This document shows, in pieces, positions 550-58,454 of a stretch of DNA of 64,000 bases. Under the pieces are notes generated by a model, which made no database searches, was not told the DNA's origin, and saw only the letters and a program-made list of their open reading frames with translations. The position numbers and the translations under genes were made by a program. Source of the DNA: Alphaproteobacteria bacterium (GTDB lineage: Bacteria > Pseudomonadota > Alphaproteobacteria > JAREAF01). Every line of letters begins with the position of its first letter. Within the stretch, counting starts at the first letter, position 1. The stretch lies in NCBI GenBank assembly GCA_035620695.1, contig DASPGI010000066.1, forward strand, positions 40,163-104,162. The letters are read 5' to 3'.

Positions 550-1782
550 CTATGCGCCATGCATCATCTCCTGCCTTCCACCGCGTTGACGCGCCAACAC
601 CGCCAACGTATGGCGGGCGATCATCAACTCCTCGTCGGTCGGCAGCACGAAAAGCGCGACGCGACTGCCGGGAGCGGAGATCAGCGGGCCGCCCCGCTCG
701 TTTGCCTTCACATCAAGCTCGGCGCCAAGCCAGGCTAGCCGCTGAGCGATCCGAGCACGGATCTCGGGGGAGTTTTCGCCGATGCCGGCGGTGAAGACGA
801 ACGCGTCGAGGCCGCTCATGGCGGCGGCCAAGGAGCCGGCGGCGAGCCCCGCGCGATAGACGAAGTAATCGATGGCAAGAGCCGCTTCTGGCCTGCCGCT
901 CGCGAGGAGCTCTCGCATATCGTTGCTGAGACCGGACAGACCCTTGAGCCCGCACTCGTGATAGAGCAAGCGTTCAACCTCGGCCGCGCTCATGCCCTTC
1001 TCGGCGAGCAGGTACAGAACCACCCCGGGGTCGATTTGCCCCGGCCGCGTGCCCATGGGCAATCCATCCAGCGCGGTGAATCCCATTGTGCTGTCGACGC
1101 TGCGGCCATCGACCATCGCGCACATCGAGACACCGCTGCCCAGATGGGCGACGATGACCCGCCCTGATCGGATCTTCTCATCGAGCGCCGTCAGCCGCTC
1201 GGCGATGTATTCGTAGGAAAGCCCGTGGAATCCATAACGACGAACGCCTTCGGCATACAGACGGGAAGGGATGGCGTAGCGGTCCGCGACCTCCGGATGC
1301 CCGCGATGGAACGCGGTGTCGAAGCATGCGACCTGAAGAAGCTCGGGCGCCTGCGCGAGCAGCGCCCGTATCGGCGCCAAATTGTTCGGCTGATGCAGCG
1401 GCGCCAGGGACACGAAACGCTCGAGCTTGTCGAGAGTCTCGGCATCGATGACCGTCGGTGCATGGAAATCGGGGCCGCCATGCACAACGCGGTGCCCGAC
1501 GGCGACCGGAAAGCCGCGGACCGTTTCACGCAGCCAGGCCCCGACGCGCCGCATCGCCTCCGGAACGTTGGGAACCTCGTCGGCGGAATAGCGGCGTTCG
1601 GCCGTCATACCGGGCTCGACGCCTTCGGCGAGAAGCATGGGCTTGACGCCGATCCCTTCCATGCGGCCCTTGAGCTTCCGCTCCACCTCCTCGCCTCCTG
1701 CGGCGGCAGCGAAGAGCTGGAACTTGATGCTCGACGAACCCGCATTGATGACGAGGACGGTGTCCGTCGGCGACGCCCTCAT
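550..1782 (-). CDS. ackA: Acetate kinase
   Basis: 410 aa. The N-terminus [16 protein letters not shown] is the acetate/propionate kinase signature. It overlaps the pta stop by 4 bp. Confidence 0.95.
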
Positions 1783-2744
1783 CCGGTCACCTTGTCGGGC
1801 CGCGCCCGCAAGGCATGCGCATAAAGCACGGCGACCGCGCAGGAGGCCATCCGGGTACGCACCGAATCGGCACGCGAGGTAAGGATGATCGGAACCCTCG
1901 CGCCCAGCACTATGCCCGCGGCATCGGCCCTGGCGAGGAACGTCAGGTTCTTGGCCAGCATATTGCCGGCCTCGAGATCGGGTACGACCAGGATTTGTGC
2001 GCGACCGGCGACCTCGGAGCGGATGCCCTTGATGCGCGCCGCCTCGGGATCGATGGCATTGTCGAAGGCAAGCGGTCCATCGAGAACACCTCCTTTGATC
2101 TGTCCGCGGTCGGCCATTTTACACAAGGCCGCCGCCTCCAGCGTGGAGGGGATCTTCGGCGTGACCGTCTCCACCGCCGACAGTATCGCGACCCTTGGGA
2201 CACCGAGCCCGAGGCCGCTGAAGAGATCGATCGCGTTCTGGATGATATCCCGCTTGGCCTCGAGATCGGGGAAGATGTTCACCGCCGCGTCGGTGATGAA
2301 CAAGGGATCGGGATAAGTGGGCACATCCATGATGAAGACATGGCTGATCCGGCGGGCGGTCCTAAGCCCGGTCTCGCGCGAGGTCACCTCGTGCAGGAGC
2401 TCGTCGGTATGGAGGCTTCCCTTCATCAAGAGCTCACCCTTGCCTTCCCGAATGAGCGCCACACCCTTGGCCGCGGCCTCGTGGCTGTGCGCGGCGTCAA
2501 CGATCTCGTGGCCGGAAAGGTTCAGCCGGTGCTCCGCCGCGACTGCGCCGATCTTGCCTTTCGGGCCCACTAGGATCGGTCGGATGAGACCATGCTCGGC
2601 GGCTTCGAGGGCCCCGCCCAGCGAGGTCTCGTCGCACGGATGCACGACCACCGTCGGCAGCGCACCGGCCTCGCGCGCTTTCGCGATCAGCCGCTCATAT
2701 TTCGCGCCGCGAGGCTCCGTGTCCGGGGTGCCGGCCGCTACCAT
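1779..2744 (-). CDS. pta: Phosphate acetyltransferase, short ~320-aa Pta/Ptb type
   Basis: 321 aa with a phosphate acetyl/butyryltransferase fold. It has a 4-bp overlap with ackA, the classic pta-ackA operon. Confidence 0.88.
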
Positions 2745-3211
2745 CGGAAAAATATCCCGATATCTCCGGGCATCCCACCGGGATAGTTGAGCACCTCCAC
2801 CCGCATCTTGTAGCCGAGTGGGGCCAGATGCTCGACATGGTAGTCATAGACCTTTCTTGCAATCCCCTGCAGGCTTTCCGGCCAGTCCTCCTCGGCGTTG
2901 TTGATCCGCCGCCCTCCATCAGAGCACCAGGAGGCCGGGAACTGCCCGATCATGATTTCTTGCCGCCCCTGCTCGGCTGCCTTGCGCACGGCGGTATTGA
3001 AGCGCTCTATCGCTTCCCGCCCGATCTCGCGGCTCATGAAGGCGTCGTGAAGCTCGCGCTGCTCCTGTTCGATTCTTTTCTTCTTCTCCAGAGCCTCGCG
3101 CGCCGCGGCCATATCGCGATCCTCCTGGAGCTTGTTGAGCTCCGAAGGTGCCACGATCTTTCCGGCAGACGATTCCTTCGCTGGCGACATGATGTCCGCT
3201 CCTTTCTTCAT
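2738..3211 (-). CDS. Conserved hypothetical protein upstream of pta (orfA-like)
   Basis: 157 aa, charged coiled-coil-like sequence. Its stop overlaps the pta start and its start overlaps the DUF3141 stop (ATGA-type coupling). No motif recognised. Confidence 0.55.
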   Translation of the reverse strand: MKKGADIMSPAKESSAGKIVAPSELNKLQEDRDMAAAREALEKKKRIEQEQRELHDAFMSREIGREAIERFNTAVRKAAEQGRQEIMIGQFPASWCSDGGRRINNAEEDWPESLQGIARKVYDYHVEHLAPLGYKMRVEVLNYPGGMPGDIGIFFRW

Positions 3212-5436
3212 CCGCCCGAGCTTCCGGCGCGGGCCGCCGAGCGTCCGCCTCGGGGCGCCGCCGCGAGATCGATCAAGGTTCCGGGTGTCTGTTCACGCAA
3301 CCCGAACAGACCCTCAACTACTTCCAGACGCCTGCGAATTTCCGCATCAGGTTCGCCTCGCGCCGCCACCACGCGCCGAAGCAGTTCGAAGGCGGTTTTT
3401 CGCGCAGCGGCCTCCTTGGGCAGGAGTTTTGGAATAGCCTGTAGCGCCGCGTCGCGATCGATCAGCAGCATGTAAAACTGCTCGCGCAGTATCTGCTTGA
3501 AGCTCTGCAACGGTAGCGCGTTACTGCCCTCATGTTCTGCGCGAATGCGTCGGATTGCCTCGAAGATGCGCTCATCGGTGCCGCCGAAGGCACTGCCGAC
3601 ATAGACCAGCGCCCGTAACAGCGCCTCGCGTATGCCTCCCTCGCCGATTCGACTATGCAGCTCCGCCTTGCGTGCCTCAACAAAGGCGTCGTGCAGCGGG
3701 CTCCGGCCGGCTTGCTCCCGCGACCAGTCCGCGGAAATGCCAAGCATCGATTGCAGCACCGGAGAGCTATAGACGGTAAGGAAGGTGCGTTCATAGGCCG
3801 CATCACGCGCATCGCGCCACCCATCCAACGCCTTCACCATCTGCTCGGAGAACCGCTCCTGCATTTGCAGGAAGGGGTTGTCGGCGGATACCGGGCTGCG
3901 GTGGTCGCGGACCGTCTCGGCCAACGCGCCGACCGCCCGCATCATCGGATTGGCGTCTGACATCCACTCATATTGCAGCCGCAGCGGGTGCATCTGTGTG
4001 AGGAACGAGGCGAAGGGGGCAAATCCCGCGCGCACCGCCGGCGCAAAAAAATGCCGATACAGCGCGAGGTTGATCTCGGAGAGCCGCTCCACCGCAGCGA
4101 AGCGACGATCGTCCTCCGGGTCGGAGGGAGCCGCGGCCCTCAAGTCATCGAAGGTGCGCGCCTCGAACCGAAGAACCCAGTCGCCCGAGACGAGATCCGT
4201 TTCCTTCATCTCACTCTTCGGCACCAGCACCGCCTCGTAGAGGCCCGGCGGAAGCACATCGATGAAATCGATGTTGCTGGCGAACTCGTCATGCTCCTTC
4301 CGGGCGATCTTGGCGGAGACGAAGATGCCGAGATGTCCGATCGAGGCGTGAACCGAGTAGATGATGGTCTGCCCGTGGACGCGGATGTCGTCGACATCCT
4401 TGTAAAGATCAGTGATCCAGCCGAGGGCCTGCGGGGGCGGAGTAATGTTGTCGCCCTCAGAGCAGAATACCAGGATCGGCGAGCGGATGGCACGCAGATC
4501 GATGCGCGATCCCTCGGAGGTGACGATCTCCGAGCTCGAAAGCTTGTTGCCGATGAACAGCTTGTCGACGATAAACTGGATTTCCTCGGCGTTGAGCATG
4601 ACATGGCCGCCCCACCATTTCTCGAAACCAAGGAATCGCGGCCCTTCCGTGTCGATATTGGCGTAGAGATTGTAGGGCTTCTTCCATAGCGTGTTGGCTG
4701 GATCCAGATTCTCGAAATTGGCCACCAGCCAGGCGCCATCGAACTGCCCGTTTCCGGCATCGCCTAAGAGCGCCGTCAGCCAGCTTCCGCCGACCAAGCC
4801 GCCGGTATAGCGCATGGGGTTCTTGCCATGAACACCAGCCCAGTAGGACAGCGGCGCACCGGCAACCACCACCGGTCCGACCAGATCGGGATGGAGCGCC
4901 GCCAGCATCATCACCGCCCAGCCGCCCTGGCAGTTGCCGATGACGCAGGGCTTGCCCTCGGCGTCGGGGTGAAGCGCGATAACTCGTTCCAGAAACTTCG
5001 CTTCCGCGGCCGTCACGTCCTCGATCGTCTGGCCCGGCATCGGCTCCGGCAGAAAGCCGATGGCATAGCAGGGATGCCCGGCGGCGAGCGCCACGCCGAT
5101 CTCGCTATCCGCCTTGAAGCCGCCGATACCCGGCCCGTGCCCGGCGCGCGGATCGACGACGACGAATGGCCGCTTGCGCGGATCGGCTTCGATGCCTTCG
5201 GGCTGCCGGATGCGGACGAGGCCGTAGTTGACAGGCCGCTCCAGTCGGCGCCCATCCATCACCGGCTCGAATTCGAAGGACAAGACGTGGGGCGCGGTGC
5301 GGGCGGTATGCTCGCGGTACTGGTTCCCGCGTTGACGCAGCATGTCCAGGTAAAGCACGGTCCGCTGCGCCGAATCGACCAGATATTCGAATAGAGGATT
5401 GTTAAAGGCGGCAACCCGTTCCCTGCTTTCTTGCAT
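3208..5436 (-). CDS. DUF3141-family alpha/beta-hydrolase-like protein with a PhaC-like GxCxGG box
   Basis: About 742 aa. The start is taken at MQESRER... (ATG at 5436) because a GGAGGAG RBS lies 7 bp upstream; the listed ORF extends further to 5628. It contains GNCQGGW, a nucleophile-elbow/lipase box that resembles the PHA synthase G-X-C-X-G-G box. Confidence 0.7.
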   Translation of the reverse strand: MQESRERVAAFNNPLFEYLVDSAQRTVLYLDMLRQRGNQYREHTARTAPHVLSFEFEPVMDGRRLERPVNYGLVRIRQPEGIEADPRKRPFVVVDPRAGHGPGIGGFKADSEIGVALAAGHPCYAIGFLPEPMPGQTIEDVTAAEAKFLERVIALHPDAEGKPCVIGNCQGGWAVMMLAALHPDLVGPVVVAGAPLSYWAGVHGKNPMRYTGGLVGGSWLTALLGDAGNGQFDGAWLVANFENLDPANTLWKKPYNLYANIDTEGPRFLGFEKWWGGHVMLNAEEIQFIVDKLFIGNKLSSSEIVTSEGSRIDLRAIRSPILVFCSEGDNITPPPQALGWITDLYKDVDDIRVHGQTIIYSVHASIGHLGIFVSAKIARKEHDEFASNIDFIDVLPPGLYEAVLVPKSEMKETDLVSGDWVLRFEARTFDDLRAAAPSDPEDDRRFAAVERLSEINLALYRHFFAPAVRAGFAPFASFLTQMHPLRLQYEWMSDANPMMRAVGALAETVRDHRSPVSADNPFLQMQERFSEQMVKALDGWRDARDAAYERTFLTVYSSPVLQSMLGISADWSREQAGRSPLHDAFVEARKAELHSRIGEGGIREALLRALVYVGSAFGGTDERIFEAIRRIRAEHEGSNALPLQSFKQILREQFYMLLIDRDAALQAIPKLLPKEAAARKTAFELLRRVVAARGEPDAEIRRRLEVVEGLFGLREQTPGTLIDLAAAPRGGRSAARAGSSGG

Positions 5437-5796
5437 TAAAGCTCCTCCAACGCGACCGAACTTTTCGACATCTTCCCGGATGGCCGATCCGACCCCTTTG
5501 ACCTGCATCAAAGTGGCGGCATTCCGGCGGCAGTCAAGGAAAAGGACGCTTGCAGCTACCGGCCATTCAGCACCGCACGCGCATTCACGACGGAGATGAG
5601 CGAGGGCGACGAACGCGCTGCCACGCAATCATCATTGTGCCGCCCGCCGCTGGCGTCATTGTTTTCATGGAGCGCGTAAAAGCATCTGGTCGAAGGTAGT
5701 AGCCCCAACGCCCAACTCGGGGTTTTTTCGCTATTCCCACGGCTATTTCCGGAGCGGGCCTCAGCAGTTGTCGACGGTGCCGGGCTTGCGAACGGC

Positions 5797-8698: not shown

Positions 8699-9427
8699 TC
8701 AGCCGCCCAAGGCAATGGCGACGGCCACCAGCGCGATGCCTAGCAACATCACGCCGACACCGGCGAACCACGGGTTCGCGATCGTATGGCGCGCCCACAG
8801 ATAGCCGACCACGAACAGCAAGATGGTGAGGAGCAAGTTGGAGAGGCGCAACGCCAGCCACGAGTCACTGACCAACAAAAATGGGGCAGCCGCCGGAAGG
8901 GCCGTCATGAACACGAGAAAGAATACGGTAACCGCCCCCATCAGATCGTCGCGCGTCACGCGAGTCCGAGGCGGCTGCGAGCGGGTGACAACTTCAAAAA
9001 CCCCCCGATATAGCCGATCGCGGTCTTCCTCTTGTGTGACCGGCTCGAGATCCGGCTCCATCTCGCGGCGAATTGCCGCCAGCGCCATAACCTCGTTCGG
9101 GGCCGCCTTGATGGCGCGAGCCAAGCGGACACGGCGGCTGCGGACGAACACCTTGCCCATGATATAGAGCACAGCGTCGATGATGCCCCAAGCGATGTTG
9201 CAGCCAATGGCCGCATAAAGCAGCTCTTGTGCGCTACCGGCTCCTTCGCCAGCGCGAATAGCGATACCGGCGCCAAGCGTGAAGGTCAGCACCATGATCA
9301 GCCCGAACAGGAGTTCACCAAGACTTTCCTCCGGACCGAGATAGCGTAGGAGAAGCAATGTCGGGTTCCCAAAATGCGAGGGTTTGATCGCTCTGAGTTC
9401 ATCGTGCCGCTTGCGATTCAAATTCAC
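8699..9427 (-). CDS. VIT1/CCC1-family iron/manganese transporter
   Basis: 242 aa. A cytoplasmic N-terminal helical region then five TM helices, with a VIT-family-like segment LYAAIGCNIAWGIIDAVLYIMG. There is an 18-bp gap to the CaCA gene. Confidence 0.75.
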   Translation of the reverse strand: MNLNRKRHDELRAIKPSHFGNPTLLLLRYLGPEESLGELLFGLIMVLTFTLGAGIAIRAGEGAGSAQELLYAAIGCNIAWGIIDAVLYIMGKVFVRSRRVRLARAIKAAPNEVMALAAIRREMEPDLEPVTQEEDRDRLYRGVFEVVTRSQPPRTRVTRDDLMGAVTVFFLVFMTALPAAAPFLLVSDSWLALRLSNLLLTILLFVVGYLWARHTIANPWFAGVGVMLLGIALVAVAIALGG

Positions 9428-9668
9428 AATCAGCTCCTGATTTTGACAAGGATCAAAGGCCGCATTGCAAAGCCATGCCGTTCACGCGCGCGCACCCCGC
9501 ACGGATGGACTTTAGTGCTAAGGCTTACGGCTCAACCTAGTCCGATAATGGCCTCTTTCGGGCAATCGACAGGGTCACGATTCAAGGACGATAGATAAGG
9601 GATGTCGCGGGCACTGCCTTTTCCCCAACCCTGCCCATGCGCGCTCTTTTTCGCGAACGGCGTCTGCG

Positions 9669-10856: not shown

Positions 10857-11648
10857 CTACAAGCGATAATTCACCGTGAATCCCAAGAACAGTTGATTCT
10901 CATCGCCCCGATTATCGACGACCGGGCTATCGGCCGCGTCGTCGATCAACCGGGTGAAGCCGCCGAGGAGCGTGGCCGACCAATGTTCGGCGAACCGATA
11001 GTTGACATTGGCGCTGACGCCGACATCCTTGAAACCGGCATCCGCATCGAAGGTGTTGAGCCCGCTTCGGGCGGCATCGCTGGCGTTCACGCCGAAATAC
11101 TCCGACATATAGTCTTCACTCGCCCAGTTGCTGAACAGCTCGGCGCCAATGGAGAAAGGGCTGTCGGGCATTCTATTGAAGTAGGACAGGCGCGGCGTGA
11201 CGAGATAGCCGTTGTCGCTGGCGACATCGTAGCGCAGATCGAGAAGCGCCGCGAAATCGGCGTTGGCCTGCGGGAAGAAGTCCCAACCAAAGATGCCGCC
11301 CAAGAAAAGTCCGGCATCGACACTCCTCATGCGGTCGACGGCGTCGTCTTCGACATTGTTGCGCTCGGGTATGTACAACCCCGATACACCAGCTCGCAGA
11401 TGCGGATCGGCGACGAAATTGGACCGCAACGCCGGTCCGGCCAGTGTTACATAGGTGTCGGGGTGGTAGAGATCCTTGGCGGAAAAGAGCCAAGTCGGCA
11501 CGCCCTGATAGTCGTCCGAACCCTCATAGTCCGGCGCGGCGCCGACACCCAGCCCCACGGTGAAGTCAGTCGCGTTCGCCGGAGCAATTGCCGCGGAAAT
11601 GACAAATGTTGCGACAGTGCAAAGGAATCCCAGGCTCAGTTTTTTCAT
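10857..11648 (-). CDS. MipA/OmpV-family outer-membrane protein
   Basis: 263 aa. Signal peptide MKKLSLGFLCTVATFVISAAIAPANA, beta-rich sequence ending FLGFTVNYRL, in keeping with an MltA-interacting-protein family beta-barrel. Confidence 0.75.
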   Translation of the reverse strand: MKKLSLGFLCTVATFVISAAIAPANATDFTVGLGVGAAPDYEGSDDYQGVPTWLFSAKDLYHPDTYVTLAGPALRSNFVADPHLRAGVSGLYIPERNNVEDDAVDRMRSVDAGLFLGGIFGWDFFPQANADFAALLDLRYDVASDNGYLVTPRLSYFNRMPDSPFSIGAELFSNWASEDYMSEYFGVNASDAARSGLNTFDADAGFKDVGVSANVNYRFAEHWSATLLGGFTRLIDDAADSPVVDNRGDENQLFLGFTVNYRL

Positions 11649-11899
11649 CTGTTTGGATCTCCATTCGCTTGTCCTAATACAACGTGGGTTCGATTCTGGC
11701 CGTGGCGAAATTCATTGAGCTGCCACCGGTGCGCATTGATGTAAATCAAGACCGCATTCGCCGCCACCTTATCTTTGTGCCGAAGTGGCCTGCTCACGCC
11801 GCTCCCAACAAATATGGCGTCGTCGCCGCGATTGGTAGCAGCGCCATCGGCGGTGCGACTCGAAGGTCATGCGCGGCCGACAATCCGCGGATTTCTCCG

Positions 11900-17250: not shown

Positions 17251-18840
17251 TCAAGGCTGTCCGGTCTTTGCTCCCAAGGGTGCCTCCATATTGGGAAGAG
17301 AGGTGCTTTCGGAATGCTTGTCTCCGGTTTGGTCGCCTGCTTCCGGGTTCACTCTCACGATCCCGATCCCAATGAGGCTGAACAGAAAGGAAATCAGCGG
17401 ATTCAAAAGGTTGAAGAAGCAGTAGATCAGATAGTTGGAAGCCGGGATACCCAGAGCCGCCGCCATATAGGCGCCGCAGCTGTTCCAGGGGATCAGCGGC
17501 GAGGTCACGGTGGCGGAATCGCCGACTACGCGCGACAGCAGGACCGGCGCCAAGCCCCGGCGCTTGAACTCCATCCGGAACATCCGTCCGGGCAGCATGA
17601 TGGCGATATACTGGTCGGAGGTCAGCAGGTTGGCGCCGATCGCGGTTCCAATCACCACGCCGACCAAGCCTGCGACCGATTTCGCCTTGTCGATGATCGG
17701 ATCGACCAGCCGATTCAACAGCCCCGCCTGCTCGACCACCGCTCCGAAGGCCAGGGCCGTCATGATCAGCCATACAGTCACCATCATGCTTGCCATGCCG
17801 CCGCGGCTCAACAACTGGTCCAAGGCCGGATCGCCCGTGCTTGATTGATAGCCGGTGGCCAGTGCGGACCAGGCGCCCTTCAAAAGCGCCAGTGACTGCG
17901 GAATGTCCGGAGCGTCGGCGAATTCAAGCACCTTGTCCGGTGATTGGACCACCGCCAAGACGCCGCCCAGCAGCGCGCCAGCGAAGATCGCCAGGAAGGG
18001 TGGCGTGCGCAGCATCGCCAGTACGAATACCGCCAGGAGCGGCAAAAAGGCCCAGAGCGTGATGTGGTGACGATCGCCGATCCGCGTCAGCTCGGCGGAG
18101 GCGTCGAAATCTCCCGGCGACCCGATCAGCGCAAAAAACACCAGCGCAAGCACCAGGGCCGGCACCGAGATGCGCAACGATTCCTTGATATGGCTGAAAA
18201 TCTCCGATCCCGCCGCGGCCACCGCAAGATTGGCGGTGTCTGATAGCGGCGAGGTCTTGTCGCCGAAATAGGCGCCCGAGATCACCGCCCCGGCGGTGAT
18301 CGCCAGCGAGAGCTCCATCGTCGCGGCGATGCCCATGAGGCCGATGCCGATCGTCCCCGCGACCGTCCAGGAACTGCCGATCGCGGTGGCGACCACGGCG
18401 CAGATCAGCGCGGCGCTGGCATAGAAATATTGCGGCGAAAGCAGCTGCAGCCCGTAATAGACCATGGCGAGGATGGTGCCGCTCATCGCCCAGGTTCCAA
18501 TCAGCGCACCGACGCCCAGAAGAATGAAGATGGCGGCCAAACCGCTCGACACGCCTTCAACCGCGCCGGCGCGAATGCTTGCCCAGGGCCTTCCATTCTT
18601 GAAAGAGATCAATGTTGCCAGCACGGCGGCAAACACGAGCGCGATCTGGTTGGGTCCTTGAGAGGCGTCCGCGCCGTAGAGATAAAAAGACAAGGCCAGA
18701 AGGACGATCAGTCCGCCGACCGGAATCAAGGCGTCGAGGAGAGATGGTCTGCGCGCGGGCTGAGCCGGTTCTTCCGTGGACCCGGGCAAGGTCGGATCAG
18801 TTGCCGCCATCACCGTCTCGGTCGCCCTTGCGGCATCCAA
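17251..18840 (-). CDS. NhaC-family Na+/H+ (or arginine/ornithine-type) antiporter
   Basis: 529 aa, about 12 TM, NhaC-family topology. It begins 30 bp after arcC on the same strand, so it is likely co-transcribed with the arc operon. Confidence 0.85.
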   Translation of the reverse strand: MDAARATETVMAATDPTLPGSTEEPAQPARRPSLLDALIPVGGLIVLLALSFYLYGADASQGPNQIALVFAAVLATLISFKNGRPWASIRAGAVEGVSSGLAAIFILLGVGALIGTWAMSGTILAMVYYGLQLLSPQYFYASAALICAVVATAIGSSWTVAGTIGIGLMGIAATMELSLAITAGAVISGAYFGDKTSPLSDTANLAVAAAGSEIFSHIKESLRISVPALVLALVFFALIGSPGDFDASAELTRIGDRHHITLWAFLPLLAVFVLAMLRTPPFLAIFAGALLGGVLAVVQSPDKVLEFADAPDIPQSLALLKGAWSALATGYQSSTGDPALDQLLSRGGMASMMVTVWLIMTALAFGAVVEQAGLLNRLVDPIIDKAKSVAGLVGVVIGTAIGANLLTSDQYIAIMLPGRMFRMEFKRRGLAPVLLSRVVGDSATVTSPLIPWNSCGAYMAAALGIPASNYLIYCFFNLLNPLISFLFSLIGIGIVRVNPEAGDQTGDKHSESTSLPNMEAPLGAKTGQP

Positions 18841-18870: not shown

Positions 18871-19809
18871 TCAGCGGTGCCATGAAAGGCCCTTGCGGTC
18901 GGAGCTGACCAGCGTTCCTTTTTCGCCCGCCACTATGGCCGGAATGTCGGCCAGCGCACCAATCGCGGCGGTCTTGCCGGTGGCTTCTGCGAAGCGGCAG
19001 GCGGCGTCGACCTTGGGTCCCATCGAGCCGGCCGGGAACTGATAGTCCCGCATCGACGCCGGGCTCGCCCGATGAATGGCCTTGGCATCGGGCTTGCCCC
19101 AATTCACGAAGACGGCGGCGGCATCGGTCGCCATTATGAAAAGGTCGGCGGCCAGTTCGCGAGCGAGAAGCTCGCTCGCCAAGTCCTTGTCGATGACGGC
19201 CTCGACGCCGATCAACTTGCGGTTCGCGCTACGCTGATACATGGTCGGAATGCCGCCGCCGCCGGCCGCGATGACGATGGTGCCCCTCTCCAACAACCAC
19301 CGGATGGGCCGGATCTCGAAGATGCGCTTGGGCTCAGGAGAAGGCACGACCCGTCGCCACTTGTCACCGTCCGCCTTGAAGATCCAACCCTTTTCCTTGG
19401 CGATGCGGTCGGCGGTCGACTTATCGTAAACCGGGCCAACGAACTTGGTCGGATTGGCGAAGCCCGGATCGTCGGGATCGATCTCGATCATGGTCAGGAG
19501 CGTGGCGAAGGGCACCTCAAACGGCAGCAGGTTGCCGAGCTCCTGCTCGATCATGTAGCCGATCATCCCTTCGGTTTCCGCGCCCAGGACGTCGAGCGGG
19601 TAGGCCTCGTCCGGCTTGTAGGCCGCGCCCTGAAGGGCAAGGAGCCCGACCTGGGGGCCGTTGCCGTGACTGATGACGAGCTGATGGTCGCGCGCGACAG
19701 GCGCCAGCGCCTCGGCCGCGATCTTCACATTCCGGCGTTGAGCGTCGGCGGTCATCGGCTCGCCACGTTTCAGAAGCGCGTTGCCTCCCAGAGCGACGAC
19801 GATGCGCAT
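18871..19809 (-). CDS. arcC: Carbamate kinase
   Basis: 312 aa. [17 protein letters not shown]... amino-acid kinase fold. Last gene of the arcDABC set. Confidence 0.95.
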
Positions 19810-19814
19810 GGCCC

Positions 19815-20819
19815 TTAATCTCCCAAGGTGGCGACCAGCAGCGCCTTGATCGTGTGCATCCGATTCTCGGCCTGCTCGAAGGCGATGTTCCGCTCTGACT
19901 CAAACACCTCGTTGGTGACCTCAAGCCCGTTCGTCATGCCGTAAGTTTCGGCGATCTGACGACCCACGACCGTCTCTGTATCGTGGAAAGCGGGCAAGCA
20001 GTGCATAAACCTCACTTGCGGGTTTCCGCTTGCCTCGATCAGGGCGTCATTCACCTGATAGGGCTTCAAGAGGTCGATGCGCTCCTTCCAAACCTCCTTC
20101 GGCTCGCCCATGGAAACCCAGACGTCCGTGTGAATGAAGTCCACCCCCTTCACCGCGGCCTTGGGGTCTTCGGTGATGGTGAGCTTGGCGCCGTGCTTAC
20201 GCTCCAAATCCTGGGCGATCTTCCTGTATTCCTGGGTTGGCCAGAGTTTCTTTGGGCCAGCGATGCGCACATCCATTCCCATCAGGCATCCGGCGATCAT
20301 CAGCGAATGGCCCATATTCGAGCGGGTATCGCCGACATAGGCGTATTTGATCTCGTGGATCGGCCGGTCGCTGTGCTCGCGCATGGTCATGATGTCCGCA
20401 AGCATCTGGGTCGGGTGATACTCGTCGGTTAGCCCGTTATAGACCGGCACGCCGGCATATTCCGCGAGCTGCTGCACGCCCTCCTGAGAAGCGCCGCGAT
20501 ACTCGATCGCGTCATACATGCGCCCCAGCACGCGCGCGGTGTCCTTGAAGGATTCTTTGTGTCCGATTTGCGAGCCCGCCGGATCGAGATAGGTGACATG
20601 CGCGCCCTGGTCATGACACGCGACCTCGAAGGCACAACGGGTGCGGGTCGAGGTCTTCTCGAAGATCAGGCAGATCTCCTTTCCTTCGAGATGCCGCTGC
20701 TCGGTCCTCGAGTACTTCGCCCGCTTGAGATCGCGCGCGAGATCCAGGAGGTAGCGGAACTCCCGTTGGGTGTAGTCCTGCACGGTCAAGAGCGAACGGT
20801 TGCGCAGATTGAAGCTCAC
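19815..20819 (-). CDS. arcB: Ornithine carbamoyltransferase, catabolic
   Basis: 334 aa. STRTR carbamoyl-phosphate motif and HCLP ornithine motif. Called arcB from operon context. Confidence 0.93.
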
Positions 20820-20847: not shown

Positions 20848-22077
20848 TCAATAGGCTGGGTCGCGGGAGACAGGGCAGGTCATGCAATGGCCACCGCCAC
20901 GCCCGCGGCCAAGCTCGGCTCCGCGTACGGTGATCACTTCGATGCCCGCCTTTCTCAGAAGAGTGTTGGTGTGAATGTTCCGGTCGTAGGCGACGACGAC
21001 GCCGGGCTCTAACGCGACGACGTTGTTTCCGTCGTCCCACTGCTCGCGTTGTGCGTCGTAGGCGTCTCCTCCGGTCTCGACGACGTGGAGCTTTTTTAAC
21101 CCCAGCGCCTCCGGAACCACCTCCAAAAGCGGCTTCGTCTCCTTGCGTATCTCGATGCCGACCGGCTCCTTGCCGGGATAGGCGCTGTAGCAGGCGATCT
21201 GATCGACCACCTCGCGGAAGACGGTGACGATATCGCGATCACAGAAACTGAAGACCGTATCGAGATGCATCGCCGCCCGGCTCTTGGGCATCAGGCATGC
21301 GATCACGCGCGAGGCCGCCTTGTTCCGGAACAGCTCGCGACAGACCTGCATCACCGCGTGCCGGCTGGTCCTCTCGCCCATCCCGATCAGCACCAGCCCC
21401 TTCCCGACCGGCATGACGTCGCCGCCTTCCATCGTGGCATTGGCGAAGTCTTCGTCCGAATCACCCCACCAGATCTTGAAATCGCCCTGTTTAAACAGCG
21501 GGTGAAACTTGTAGACGGCGCGCTGGAGCAGGGTTTCCGGCTTGCGCGCCGGCCAGAACATCGGATTGCACGTAACCCCGCCATAGATCCAGCAAGAGGG
21601 ATCGCGCTGAAACAGGGTATTGGGAATCGGCGGGATCACGAAATCGGCGCCACCGAACGCCTCGCTCATCATCTTCTTCATGCCGTTTTCAGGGAGGTCG
21701 TCGACGGCGATGCCGCCGATCAGATGTTCGGCCAGTTGCTTGGCCGGCATCTCGTCGAGCCAAGGACGCATCGCCACCGCAGCGCCGACGCCAACATGAT
21801 TCGACGTGATACGGCGGTCGAGGATGAAGGCTCGTCCCTCGGGCTCTTCCAGAACCGCGGTCAGCAGATCGTGCAGGTCCAGGACCTCGGTGCCTCGTTC
21901 CTGCATCTTCAGCGCGAAGTCGTAGTGGTCCTTCTGCGCCTCGTGCACCCACAGCACATCGTCAAATAGCAGGGTATGGCAGTTTCCGGGCGTGAGGCGC
22001 TGATGCGCCAAACCGGGCCGGCACACCATCACCGCATTCAGCTTGCCGACCTCAGAGTGAACCCCGAGCTTGAACAT
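20848..22077 (-). CDS. arcA: Arginine deiminase
   Basis: Start taken at [13 protein letters not shown] (ATG at 22077) behind a GGAGAGGAAG RBS. The listed ORF start at 22149 would overlap arcD and is probably an over-extension. It contains ADI family blocks, including the catalytic Cys region GGGHCMTCP. Confidence 0.93.
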
Positions 22078-22121
22078 CTTCCTCTCCCGTAATCCGTGAT
22101 CCGAAGAAGCTTCCACTCCGT

Positions 22122-23603
22122 TCAAAGCGGGCTGATTTGGCCGGTCCATAAGAGCCAGCCTGCGTAGACGCCGAGCGCGACGATTGCTGCGGCGATCAGC
22201 GCCTCGATCCCTGTGAAGGCTGCCTGCCCCGTCTCCCTACGCGCCTTGACATAGACGAGGATGCCCGGAACGAAGAGCACCGCGCACATCAACAGGTAAG
22301 AGAGCCCTGCGGCATAGACGAGCCAGAGTCCATAAAGGGTGGCGACCGCGCCTACGATCAAATCGCGGGTCCGCCCGCGCTCCGCCGTTCCGTAGCCCTC
22401 GCCCGTCAGCGCCAGCTTCAGCGCATAGGCGCCGGAGAAGACGTAAGGAGGCAGGATGGCCACCGAAGCGATGAAGTAGAAGAACTGATAGGCGCTCTTC
22501 GAGAAGAACGAGAGCACCAGGAACAGCTGGATAAGGATATTGGTGACCCAGAGCGAGTTGACCGGCGAGCCGTTGGCGTTCTCCGCGGCGAACCATTTGG
22601 GGAAGGTGCCGTCGCGGCCGCAGATATAGGGAATTTCCGCACAGAGAAGCGTCCAGGCCAAGAATGCGCCCCCGACCGAAACGATCAGACCGATATTGAT
22701 GACGGCCGCACCCCAGGGCCCGACCACCGAGGCAAGGACCCCGGCCATCGAAGGAACCTTCTGGTCGGCAAGCTCGGGCTGGCTCAACACCCCGGTGGCC
22801 AGAAGCGACACGAGCACATAGATGCCGAGAGCTCCGAGGAAGCCGAGCACGGTCGCCCGCCCGACATCTCGCCGATTGGCCGCGCGGGCGGAGTAGACGC
22901 TTGCACCCTCGATGCCGATGAAGACCCACAAGGTCACCAGCATCGTGCTCTTGACCTGGTCGAGCACCGAGCCAAGCCCGGCATTCTCAGCGCCGCCTGC
23001 CCGGCCCCAGAAATCGAAAGTGAACTGGTCCCAGTTGAAGGCGATGATCGCCACCAGGATGAAGAGCATGATCGGCGCCAGCTTGGCGACGGTCGTGATC
23101 AGGTTGACGAACGCCGCCTGCCGTATGCCCTTCAGCACCAGGGCATGGATCAGCCAAAGGCAGATCGACGCCCCGATGATGGACGGCAGGTTGTTGCCGT
23201 CCCCGAACATCGGAGCGAAGTAGGACAGCGCCGAGAAGATCGCGACCGCATAGGCGACGTTGCCGAGGAAGGCGCTGATCCAGTATCCCCAGGCGCTGTT
23301 GAATCCGATGAAATTGCCGAAGCCCGCCTTGGCATAGGCGTAAGGGCCGGCGTCGAGGCCAGGCTTGCGCATGGCCAGACCCTGATAGACGAAGGCGAGC
23401 ATCAACATGCCGATGCCGGTCACGATCCAGCCGATCACGATCGCGCCAGGACCAGCACTTCTCGACATGTCGGACGGCAGATTGAAGACGCCGCCGCCGA
23501 TCATCGAACCGACGACGAGTGCGACCAAGGGCAGGAGCGTCAATTTTGGCGATACGCCGGCTGCCCTGCTCTCCTGTCCGGCCGTTGCAACCTGAGTGGT
23601 CAT
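22122..23603 (-). CDS. arcD: Arginine/ornithine antiporter, APC superfamily
   Basis: 493 aa, 12-13 TM, with an APC-type N-terminus ([18 protein letters not shown]). First gene of the arc operon. Confidence 0.9.
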
Positions 23604-23668
23604 TAGTGGTCCCTAAATAAGTGATCCCTAAGTCGGATCAGATGTAAGGCGCACCAAACGGAACGTTG

Positions 23669-23682
23669 TTGATCTGGATCAA
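23669..23682. promoter_or_regulatory. Candidate FNR/ANR-type box TTGATCTGGATCAA upstream of arcD
   Basis: Perfect TTGAT-N4-ATCAA palindrome centred about 72 bp upstream of the arcD start codon, in the 340-bp arcD/porin divergent intergenic region. Confidence 0.55.
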
Positions 23683-23942
23683 AGGGTGCCCGTGATTGCT
23701 CTTCAAGTTTTTGTGATCTTCCGAACTAGAAGTGACTGCACAAGAGGTAGCCTTAAGTTCGCGGCCAATCACCAGCTTGTCTGTAACTCGCTCGCCACAC
23801 GGTATGATTGATCTCGAATCTCATTTTGGTTTCGCGTTGACCCTCTATCCTCCGCGGTTCTACTCCGGTGCCGTGGGCCAAGACTCGGAAGGCTGACAGG
23901 GGGATTGACTCCTCCAGCCTTGATCTTGGAGGGGGCCATAAG

Positions 23943-25064
23943 ATGAAAAGAGTTCTGTTGGGAACGACGGCATTGATGGCCGCCAGCGCGATCGGCATGG
24001 GCCAAGCCCATGCGAAGTTCGATGTGACGATCAATGGCGTCTGGAACACCGCTTACGGCTTCGTCGACCAGGATGACAGCACCGGCGAGTCTGGCGACAA
24101 TAGGCACAACCAAGCCATCAACGAAGACTTCGAGGTGTTTTTCCAGATAACCCAGACCTTGGATAACGGCGTTACGGTCGGCGGCCGAGTCGAGCTGGAA
24201 GGCTTTCAGTCCGACAGTGACCAAATTGATGAGCGCTGGATCTATTTCCGCGGCGGCTTCGGCGAGGTCCGCATCGGCGACGAGGACGACGCCCGCAAGC
24301 TGATGTCTTACACCTCTCCGAACCCGACGAACTTCCTTTTCGGCGTGAATTCGCCCTCCTTCACCTTCCAGAGCTTGGCCTCCGGCCAGGTCGTGTCGAC
24401 CAACTCGACCACTCCGTTCGACGGCGACTCCTCGAAGATCATCTACTTCACGCCCTCCTTCAGCGGTTTCCAGCTCGCCGTCTCTTACGCGCCAGATGCC
24501 AGCCAGGACCGCACCGGTTTCGGCACCGGCAGCACCCAGGATTTCGTGTCGAGTTATGTCTCGATCGGAGCAAACTATTCCGGTCAGTTCGACGGCTTTA
24601 CTATCGGGGCTGGCGGCGGATATTCCCAGGCTCACGCCGAAACCAACGGTCCTGGTCCTTTCGGCAATGCCATCAACGACGACAGCCCCTATACTTGGGC
24701 GGCCGGCGCGAATATCGGCTTCGGCGGGTTCACCGTGGGCGGATCGATCGCGATGGGCGATGGGCTGGATTCAACCGGCTACAACGGCTATTCGGTGACC
24801 GAAGCCACCGTCTATGATATCGGCGTGACCTACGCGTTCGATGCGGTCAATGTCGGCATCGCCTGGAGCCACGGCGAATACGAGGACGTAAACGACGGCG
24901 AGAATGACGAGCTCGACTTCATCACCCTCGGCTCGGGTTACACATTGGGCGAGGGGGTGTTACTCGCCGCCTTCGTCGGATGGTTCGACTATGAGGATGG
25001 AGGCCCGACGAGCAACGACAATACCGGCTGGCAGGCCGGCGTCGGCGCCGGGCTCGACTTCTGA
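23943..25064 (+). CDS. Alphaproteobacterial porin (Omp2/RopA-like)
   Basis: Start at MKRVLLGTTALMAASAIGMGQAHA (signal peptide, GGAGGGGG RBS) rather than the listed 23868. Glycine-rich beta-strand pattern with a C-terminal ...GVGAGLDF. Confidence 0.8.
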   Translation: MKRVLLGTTALMAASAIGMGQAHAKFDVTINGVWNTAYGFVDQDDSTGESGDNRHNQAINEDFEVFFQITQTLDNGVTVGGRVELEGFQSDSDQIDERWIYFRGGFGEVRIGDEDDARKLMSYTSPNPTNFLFGVNSPSFTFQSLASGQVVSTNSTTPFDGDSSKIIYFTPSFSGFQLAVSYAPDASQDRTGFGTGSTQDFVSSYVSIGANYSGQFDGFTIGAGGGYSQAHAETNGPGPFGNAINDDSPYTWAAGANIGFGGFTVGGSIAMGDGLDSTGYNGYSVTEATVYDIGVTYAFDAVNVGIAWSHGEYEDVNDGENDELDFITLGSGYTLGEGVLLAAFVGWFDYEDGGPTSNDNTGWQAGVGAGLDF

Positions 25065-27358: not shown

Positions 27359-28771
27359 TTAAGAAAGGGGCACCTCGATTTCGCAGCGCAAGCCGTCCTT
27401 GCGCCACTCCATTTCGAGGGTACCTCCCAACTGCTGACAGACGGCCCCTTCAATGATGGTCATGCCGAAGCCCTTTTTTCTCGGCGGCTGGGCCTCAGCG
27501 CAACCGCTTTCCGTCCACCGGAACAGCAGTCGGTCGCCCGGCATCCCCCACCAGCGCAGCTCGATACGGCCGGACGGCTGGTGGATTGCGCCATGCTTGA
27601 CGGCGTTGGTCGACAGCTCGTGCACCACCATGGCGAGCGACTGGGCCAGCTGCGGGGAGACCGAAAGAGAGGGGCCATCGATCGCCACGCGGACATTCTC
27701 GCCTCCCAGATAAGGAGCAAGCTCGTCCTGGACGATACGGCGCAGATCGGCACCTTCCCAGCGCGAGGTCGACAGCAAGGTGTGCGCACGAGACAGGGCC
27801 GAGATGCGGCCGTCGACCGCCTCCTTGAACTCCGGTATTGAATCGGCCTGGGTCAGATGCACCAGCGCCTGGATCACCGCAAGCATGTTCTTCGCCCGGT
27901 GGTCCACCTCGCTGGCAAGCAGGCGCAGCCGTTCCTCCGACGCCTTGCGCTCGGTGATGTCCACCAGCATGTTGACCGCCCCGACCACGGCGCCCGAGCA
28001 ATCGTGCAGGAGTGTCGGATAGGGCGCAAAGGTAACGCGCGTGCCGTCCGGACGCTCCACGACGGCTTCGGCGCCTCTGATCGGGCGGCGCTGGTTGAGC
28101 GTCTGGGCCATGGGGCAGTGATCGTGCGGCATCGGCCTGCCATCGGGATAGAACAGCCGCCACGATCCGCACCAGGTCGCGGTTCCGATCTCAGGTCGAC
28201 ACCCCCAAAGCTCGACGGCGGCTTCGTTGTAGAAGGTGATGGAACCGGCCGCATCCGTGGTGTAGATGGCGGCGGGCAGTCCTTGAAGCAGCTCACGCAG
28301 CCGCTGTTCGCTTTCCTTGACCCTCTCTTCTGCAAGCCTGCGGCGAGTGATGTCCTGAAAGCAGTTCACCGCGCCGGCGAGCTCTCCCGTCTCCGAGAAA
28401 AGCGGCCGGACATTGAGCAGAACCGAGATGCGTGTCCTATCCGGGCGCTCGATCGTGAGCTCTCGATCGACAGCCGGAATTCCGGTCCGCAATACTTCCG
28501 CCATCGGCGTTTCGTCGAGCGAGAGCGGCACGCCGTCCGGCGTGTAGGCGCGCAACGCTCCGCAATAACGCTGCCGAGCCTCGCCGATCTGCGGCGAGCG
28601 GCCCCAAAGCATCGCGGCGCGCTCGTTGTAGCGGATCAGCGCCCCGTCCCGGTCGCAGATGCACAAGCCGATCGGCAGCGCATCGAAGAGGTGTTCGCCC
28701 CAAAGCGGGAGGGACCTTGGCTGGGCCGAGACGAATGGAACGACCTTTTCCGCCGCGGTCGGCTCGCTCAT
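27359..28771 (-). CDS. Cytoplasmic PAS-PAS sensor histidine kinase, HWE/HisKA_2 family
   Basis: 470 aa. Two PAS-like repeats, an H-box HRAKNMLAVIQAL (HisKA_2) and an HWE-type ATPase region (HELSTNAVKHGA ... RWWG ... E). No TM segments. Confidence 0.85.
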   Translation of the reverse strand: MSEPTAAEKVVPFVSAQPRSLPLWGEHLFDALPIGLCICDRDGALIRYNERAAMLWGRSPQIGEARQRYCGALRAYTPDGVPLSLDETPMAEVLRTGIPAVDRELTIERPDRTRISVLLNVRPLFSETGELAGAVNCFQDITRRRLAEERVKESEQRLRELLQGLPAAIYTTDAAGSITFYNEAAVELWGCRPEIGTATWCGSWRLFYPDGRPMPHDHCPMAQTLNQRRPIRGAEAVVERPDGTRVTFAPYPTLLHDCSGAVVGAVNMLVDITERKASEERLRLLASEVDHRAKNMLAVIQALVHLTQADSIPEFKEAVDGRISALSRAHTLLSTSRWEGADLRRIVQDELAPYLGGENVRVAIDGPSLSVSPQLAQSLAMVVHELSTNAVKHGAIHQPSGRIELRWWGMPGDRLLFRWTESGCAEAQPPRKKGFGMTIIEGAVCQQLGGTLEMEWRKDGLRCEIEVPLS

Positions 28772-57773: not shown

Positions 57774-58454
57774 TCAGCCGATCGGCGAAACCCCGAACAC
57801 GGCCGGGTGCAGGCCGATCAAAAGCGCATAGAACGCCGCCGCCAAGGCCAGGCGCCACCAGCCGATCTCCGACCAGACGAGCCGAGCGCGGCCTTGGGCG
57901 ATGGCGGCGATGGGAAGGTTCGAGGTGCGCGAAGCGAAGGCGGTCCAGCCGGCCGGGTCGCGCCCGCGCGTCTTGCGGTCGATCTCGACCGTGCCGACCA
58001 GGGCGAGCGCCAGCATTCCACCGAATAACACCAGCGAGGGAAAATCGCCATTGACGACCAGGTGCCCCGCCGCCCAGAGCGCCACCGACCACAGGAACGG
58101 GTGGCGCGTTATCGCCATCACGCCGCGCGCCGCATCCGCACCAAGGCCTCGCGTCTGACCCACCGTGGTCGGATTGCGCTGGCTGAAGGCGCCGACGAAG
58201 AGGAGGCTGGCCGGCGCCATCAAAAGAAGCGGCACGGCTGAGAACTGCGGTCCCCACCACGGCGCGCGCGGCGCGGTCGCATAGCCATAGGAAAGCCAGA
58301 GGAGGCCAATGAGCGCCACCATAGAATAGGCCATGGTGAAGCCGCGCTCGCCGAGCCAGCTCGCCAGCTTCGGCCGAACGGGCCCGGAGGCCAGGATGAC
58401 ATGCCCACCATAGAAGAGGGCCGCGCCCATCAGCAGGTGAGATGTGCCGGACAT
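57774..58454 (-). CDS. nnrU: NnrU-family membrane protein
   Basis: 226 aa, 5-6 TM, with the NnrU-like block ITRHPFLWSVALWAAGHL. Confidence 0.72.
   Translation of the reverse strand: MSGTSHLLMGAALFYGGHVILASGPVRPKLASWLGERGFTMAYSMVALIGLLWLSYGYATAPRAPWWGPQFSAVPLLLMAPASLLFVGAFSQRNPTTVGQTRGLGADAARGVMAITRHPFLWSVALWAAGHLVVNGDFPSLVLFGGMLALALVGTVEIDRKTRGRDPAGWTAFASRTSNLPIAAIAQGRARLVWSEIGWWRLALAAAFYALLIGLHPAVFGVSPIG

Follow-up and report, generated by a model that had tools for sequence, protein, structure and literature searches.

A predicted FNR/Anr/FixK-type activator site at the arcD promoter of an arginine deiminase operon in an uncultured alphaproteobacterium

Background

The arcDABC operon of Pseudomonas aeruginosa shares with the locus described here the gene order arcD-arcA-arcB-arcC and an FNR-type box upstream of arcD. 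The Pseudomonas arc box is imperfect (TTGAC-N4-ATCAG), whereas a perfect consensus is present in the alphaproteobacterial window (i.e., the whole stretch of 64,000 nucleotides, or 64 kb, that was analysed). The Pseudomonas box is reportedly centred at −41.5, a position credited to Gamper et al. 1991 and Winteler & Haas 1996. A preliminary description of this DNA had referred to an equivalent ANR box in the Pseudomonas arc operon, and published work agrees, reporting Anr boxes in front of arcD for 20 out of 24 Pseudomonas species with arginine fermentation genes (PMC6588701). In P. aeruginosa, Anr activates arcDABC as well as ackA-pta, and arc control in Pseudomonas additionally comprises an AraC-type ArgR helper site and repression by NarL (PMC12491237). 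When the P. aeruginosa arcD promoter was sought in a plasmid collection, the match obtained (H25) proved to be a paralogue linked to ddaH rather than arcDABC.

In rhizobia, the “anaerobox” of FixK and FnrN has the identical consensus, TTGAT-N4-ATCAA (PMC7888657), and PMC3164228 (citing Bobik et al. 2006) names arcABC among the experimentally confirmed FixK targets of S. meliloti. No site with at most one mismatch was found in the arc region of S. meliloti SM11; for many arcD genes of Mesorhizobium, Rhizobium, Shinella, and Devosia, a box was present at the distance seen in the window. The rhizobial regulators are either FixK, which senses oxygen indirectly (via FixLJ or hFixL-FxkR), or FnrN, which senses it directly, and the window does not distinguish between these two types. 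Unlike the rhizobial FixK/FnrN systems, the 64-kb window contains no fix genes. In the Rhodobacterales, FnrL and Dnr of Dinoroseobacter shibae use class II sites 39.5–41.5 bp upstream of mapped transcription starts (PMC5398030). Boxes of the Rhodobacterales arcD homologues surveyed here were located farther upstream (−160 to −190 from the ATG), which would imply extended leaders or another promoter architecture. In the literature, TTGAT-N4-ATCAA is given as the binding site of FNR, Anr, and FixK (PMC7888657, PMC6588701, PMC5398030). Control of arginine fermentation by Anr and FixK is already established, and the arcD box described below would be a further instance that leaves the current understanding unchanged.

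The arcDABC operon and the gap upstream of arcD

The window contains a complete arginine deiminase operon, in which all four genes (arcD-arcA-arcB-arcC) are contiguous and in the same orientation. The following features were assigned to the operon and its surroundings:

22122..23603, minus strand: arcD, arginine-ornithine antiporter, first gene of the operon (TIGR03810, 636 bits, cut-off 591)
20848..22149, minus strand: arcA, arginine deiminase (NF002381, 570 bits)
19815..20819, minus strand: arcB, catabolic ornithine carbamoyltransferase (NF002470, 551 bits)
18871..19809, minus strand: arcC, carbamate kinase, the ATP-yielding step (NF009008, 496 bits)
17251..18840, minus strand: NhaC-family transporter (TIGR00931, 349 bits, and NF052307, 307 bits, both below the cut-offs)
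23604..23942: non-coding gap of 339 bp with divergent genes on either side (GC content 51.6% vs 63.7% for the whole window)
23943..25064, plus strand: divergent porin gene (Porin_4, E = 5e-46)

ArcD, ArcB, and ArcC each scored above an equivalog cut-off; ArcA reached 485.7 against the equivalog TIGR01078 (cut-off 489.1) and passed only the subfamily model NF002381. The N-terminus of ArcD aligned with homologues starting at residue 1. The coordinates of arcA are those of the longest open reading frame, its real start probably lying about 25 codons downstream. The NhaC-family transporter gene starts 31 nt downstream of arcC, no convincing terminator was found at the junction of the two genes, and the transporter is probably co-transcribed with arcC. 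It may represent a second, unrelated arginine/ornithine exchanger in the arc operon; NF052307 is the model of an NhaC-type “ArcD arginine/ornithine antiporter” and has a cut-off of 650 vs the 307 bits scored.

Other control elements were sought in the gap. Repeats of TGTCGC-N8-AA form the ArgR site of Pseudomonas. Control of an ArgR type, raised as a possibility in the preliminary description, was not borne out, as neither this half-site (at most one mismatch) nor the ARG box of E. coli/Bacillus (TGAATWWWWATTCA, at most three mismatches) matched anywhere in 23604..23942; in this respect the gap, which belongs to an uncultured alphaproteobacterial host, differs from the Pseudomonas promoter with its ArgR site. 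Comparison of the gap with Rfam gave no match at E ≤ 1, and reading of the sequence for the K-box of FxkR showed a lone GTTACA with no repeat. One weak hairpin (23640..23622) was considered as a terminator within the gap and rejected, since it was within chance expectation.

The palindrome and its chance expectation

A perfect CRP/FNR-family palindrome, TTGATCTGGATCAA (TTGATCCAGATCAA in arcD orientation), is located at 23669..23682. This 14-bp inverted repeat matches the TTGAT-N4-ATCAA consensus at 10/10 specified positions, and the exact FNR/ANR consensus noted earlier was verified in both sequence and coordinates. Its distance to the arcD ATG, given earlier as about 72 bp, was measured as 72.5 nt from the box centre (23675.5) to the start codon (A at 23603), so that the box starts at −79. 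No longer repeat containing the box was found.

Two perfect TTGAT-N4-ATCAA sites were present in the 64 kb vs 0.02 expected, and none of 100 shuffles reached this number; with up to one mismatch allowed, seven sites were found in the window vs 0.89 expected. The four top-scoring sites (at 23669, 11736, 5498, and 9443) were all non-coding and upstream of minus-strand genes, a pattern suggestive of a regulator in this organism that uses the TTGAT-N4-ATCAA motif.

Survey of arcD homologues

For 80 arcD homologues from species-representative genomes, start codons were assigned and the upstream regions were then scanned for TTGAY-N4-RTCAA. The gene order arcD-arcA-arcB-arcC was found in nearly all of the 80 loci. 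The motif occurred in the 300 nt preceding arcD in 42/80 loci (46 matches in 24 kb), although these homologous promoters are phylogenetically related, and the counts thus overstate the number of independent observations. The coding regions of the same loci, which served as a control, yielded 0 matches in 239 kb, a far-upstream control (−3000..−400) yielded 10 matches in 185 kb, and shuffled upstream regions yielded 0.045 loci with a box. The positional mode was at −80..−71, where 19 matches start and where the box start of the window (−79) also falls. Among the hosts with a box upstream of arcD were Mesorhizobium, Rhizobium, Shinella, Devosia, Phyllobacterium, and several MAGs. In the box-bearing homologues, the central N4 and the flanks of the box (including the 20 nt preceding it) varied and the box-to-arcD distance was conserved. 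Taken together, the comparative evidence predicts a functional box, in a fixed-distance arrangement of FNR box and arcD that is widely shared in Alphaproteobacteria, with one arc sub-lineage being mostly devoid of it.

Promoter geometry and transcription start

Thirty-four homologous promoters were aligned on the box, and the information content was determined per position. The flanks carried near-zero information, except for TAnATT, which occupies +36..+41 counted from the start of the box. When a TAnnnT score was calculated for offsets 24–49, a single peak was obtained at 36 (1.77 vs ≤0.94 elsewhere). If TAnATT is taken as the −10 element at −12..−7, the box centre is placed at −41.5, i.e., the class II position of FNR. 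As a proxy for this position, TAnATT was seen at that offset only, in 31–34 homologous promoters, and the TACATC of the window is in register with it. For promoters that depend on Fnr, boxes at 39.5–41.5 have been described as nearly optimal (PMC5398030). The resulting predictions for the window are as follows:

23641..23646, minus strand: predicted −10 hexamer TACATC, separated from the box by 22 nt and in the register of TAnATT
23604..23634, minus strand: predicted 31-nt 5′ leader, from box and −10 geometry

The candidate −10 element lacks the conserved final T. From the geometry of box and −10 element, the arcD transcription start is predicted near 23634 (±2) on the minus strand, so that the combination of a box at −41.5, the −10 hexamer TACATC, and this start constitutes a testable promoter prediction. 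The predicted leader contains an SD-like AGGGA (23614..23610). Separately, a 15-nt tandem duplication was observed at 23602..23631 (TTAGGGATCACTTAT / TTAGGGACCACTAAT in arcD orientation), which lies partly in the predicted leader, doubles the SD-like AGGGA, and is missing from the syntenic relative L081.

A consensus scan for sigma-70 −35/−10 promoters found none in 23550..24000. The predicted −35 position of the arcD promoter is occupied by the box and offers no good −35 hexamer; the lack of a stand-alone sigma-70 promoter is expected where an activator replaces the −35 contact. The earlier proposal that an FNR-family box serves the arcD promoter is hence supported by the occurrence of the box in 42/80 homologues, the positional mode that includes −79, the −10 element in register, and the absence of a sigma-70 promoter. 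On this comparative support, we assign a rough probability of 0.8 to the reading that the palindrome drives arcDABC as a class II site for an activator of the FNR/Anr/FixK type, in other words as a genuine operator to which such a member of the CRP/FNR family would bind.

The symmetry of the site and its location in a divergent gap also allow for an action on the porin gene, in addition to or instead of arcD, be it from a distance or as a class II site that works in both directions and gives the porin a long leader, and a weak CAAGTT hexamer can be read from the sequence at the mirror-image −10 position. We consider this improbable: direct control of the porin by the box is unlikely because 267 nt separate its centre from the ATG of the porin and because the adjacency of the porin is not conserved, being limited to L081 and, at a greater distance, L002, whereas the box-to-arcD distance is conserved. 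The 226-nt leader that would result is, moreover, not accounted for by any RNA family or small ORF. A porin promoter may lie within the gap, as suggested previously, but none was detected by the consensus scan; TTGACC-N17-CTACTC at about 23838..23866, read by eye, could be the porin's own promoter.

Close relatives and promoter turnover

The closest other ArcD proteins (82–86% identity) were from metagenome contigs. Upstream of arcD, the near relative L087 has TTGACGTAGATCAA at −76 and L081 has GTGATCTGCGTCAA at −74, L083–L086 show TTGATTTGAAACAC, a degenerate version, at about −77, and no box was found in L082 (86% ArcD identity). L081 is the sole syntenic relative with the same divergent porin/arcD pair (porin 85% identity). 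Its gap could mostly not be aligned with that of the window, and the top conserved non-coding 20-mer between the two (13/20) spans the box and the bases directly downstream.

Azospirillum-type and Rhizobiales arc operons (75–80% ArcD identity; L001–L014) were mostly without an FNR-like box. Five of these loci (L003, L006, L007, L008, and L011) have a common motif, GGAAACCGTATCAATCTTCTG...GCTTAAAATTTGGGCTTCC, about 110–200 nt upstream of arcD, and the Azospirillum-type loci with this motif also have a conserved long leader; four Azospirillum-type loci gave no match to Rfam at the gathering score. Palindromes of the form GTTACCGTAAC are located upstream of arcD in L007, L012, and L013. The box is therefore widespread but not universal, which points to promoter turnover within the arc lineage.

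That the closest Azospirillum-type arc operons do without such a box could also be taken to mean that the palindrome is there by chance or is non-regulatory (e.g., the end of a repeat element or a cluster of restriction sites), the arc operon being controlled otherwise. This is very improbable, given that 0.02 perfect sites are expected per window, that both the position and the −10 register agree with dozens of homologous promoters, and that the box lies outside any longer repeat.

Other boxes in the window

The three further top-scoring sites and their downstream genes are:

5498..5511: one-mismatch box (TTGATGCAGGTCAA as read on the minus strand), starting at −75 from the ATG at 5436, in the same geometry as at arcD
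3208..5436, minus strand: DUF3141 protein (PF11339, 921 bits)
11736..11749: second perfect box TTGATGTAAATCAA, the only other one in the window, starting at −101 from the mipA-like ATG at 11648
10857..11648, minus strand: MipA-family outer-membrane gene
9443..9456: one-mismatch box (TTGATCCTTGTCAA as read on the minus strand), only 15 nt ahead of where the longest ORF of the VIT-family gene begins
8699..9427, minus strand: VIT-family ORF

The VIT-family gene probably either has its true start further downstream or is transcribed into a nearly leaderless mRNA. The DUF3141 operon (550..5511, minus strand) encodes the DUF3141 protein, a 157-aa ORF, a PTA_PTB phosphotransacylase, and an acetate kinase, in the same gene order as on Azospirillum brasilense plasmid p2, and possibly turns polyhydroxyalkanoate into ATP. 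No box with at most one mismatch was found in eight plasmid-borne homologues of this operon (0/8), which indicates that the box at 5498 is not generally conserved; the DUF3141 homologue of S. meliloti Rm41 has TTGACGCAGATCAC with two mismatches.

A tentative reading, which we regard as possible but rather doubtful, is that promoter turnover followed a transfer of the operon, placing a perfect FNR box at the canonical distance in the window when relatives with 75–86% ArcD identity mostly have other motifs, and that the region is an approximately 24-kb “hypoxic energy” island. This island would comprise arcDABC and DUF3141-pta-ackA with matching box geometry, together with the boxed MipA-like and VIT-like genes. 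If true, an uncultured alphaproteobacterium would hold two ATP-yielding fermentative operons in a compact island of this kind.

Regulator and signal

For the predicted class II site at arcD, the following mechanism is proposed. A dimeric activator of the CRP/FNR family would bind the palindrome; candidates are an O2-labile [4Fe-4S] protein of the FNR/FnrN/FnrL/Anr type or a FixK-type protein made under the control of FixLJ. Positioned in the −35 region of arcD and centred at about −41.5 (class II), the bound activator would recruit RNA polymerase to the weak −10 element TACATC (23646..23641), and transcription would proceed from about 23634 on the minus strand through arcD, arcA, arcB, arcC, and probably the gene of the NhaC-type transporter. 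Scarcity of oxygen would thereby switch on arginine fermentation, with ATP being generated via carbamate kinase. No gene of the CRP/FNR family was recognised in the 64-kb window, based on Pfam searches of ORFs of 200–260 aa and a crude screen for HTH motifs.

Low oxygen is the presumed signal for arcDABC. Since the sites of Dnr and Anr are indistinguishable (PMC5398030), the box alone cannot tell an O2 from a NO signal, and the motifs of NnrR and FixK overlap as well (PMC5596199). The box might accordingly be the target of a CRP/FNR paralogue sensing something other than oxygen, e.g., a NO-responsive protein of the NnrR/Dnr type, in which case the operon would sense denitrification intermediates or another signal; a gene for NnrU, a marker of NnrR regulons, is present in the window at 57774..58454 (minus strand). 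We judge this unlikely, because the site is the full TTGAT-N4-ATCAA rather than the looser TTG-N8-CAA, all documented precedents among proteobacterial arc operons involve Anr or FixK, and the co-boxed operon of the ackA-pta type is a typical target of Anr and not of Dnr. With oxygen as the presumed signal, what is gained is the annotation of arcDABC, which we would make with confidence, as a predicted member of an oxygen-limitation regulon in an uncultured alphaproteobacterium.

Apart from this, the NnrU gene hints at a NO-responsive regulon of the NnrR type in the organism. One further gene was noted in the window:

27359..28771, minus strand: LOV/PAS-type histidine kinase (NF052306, 192 bits, below the cut-off)
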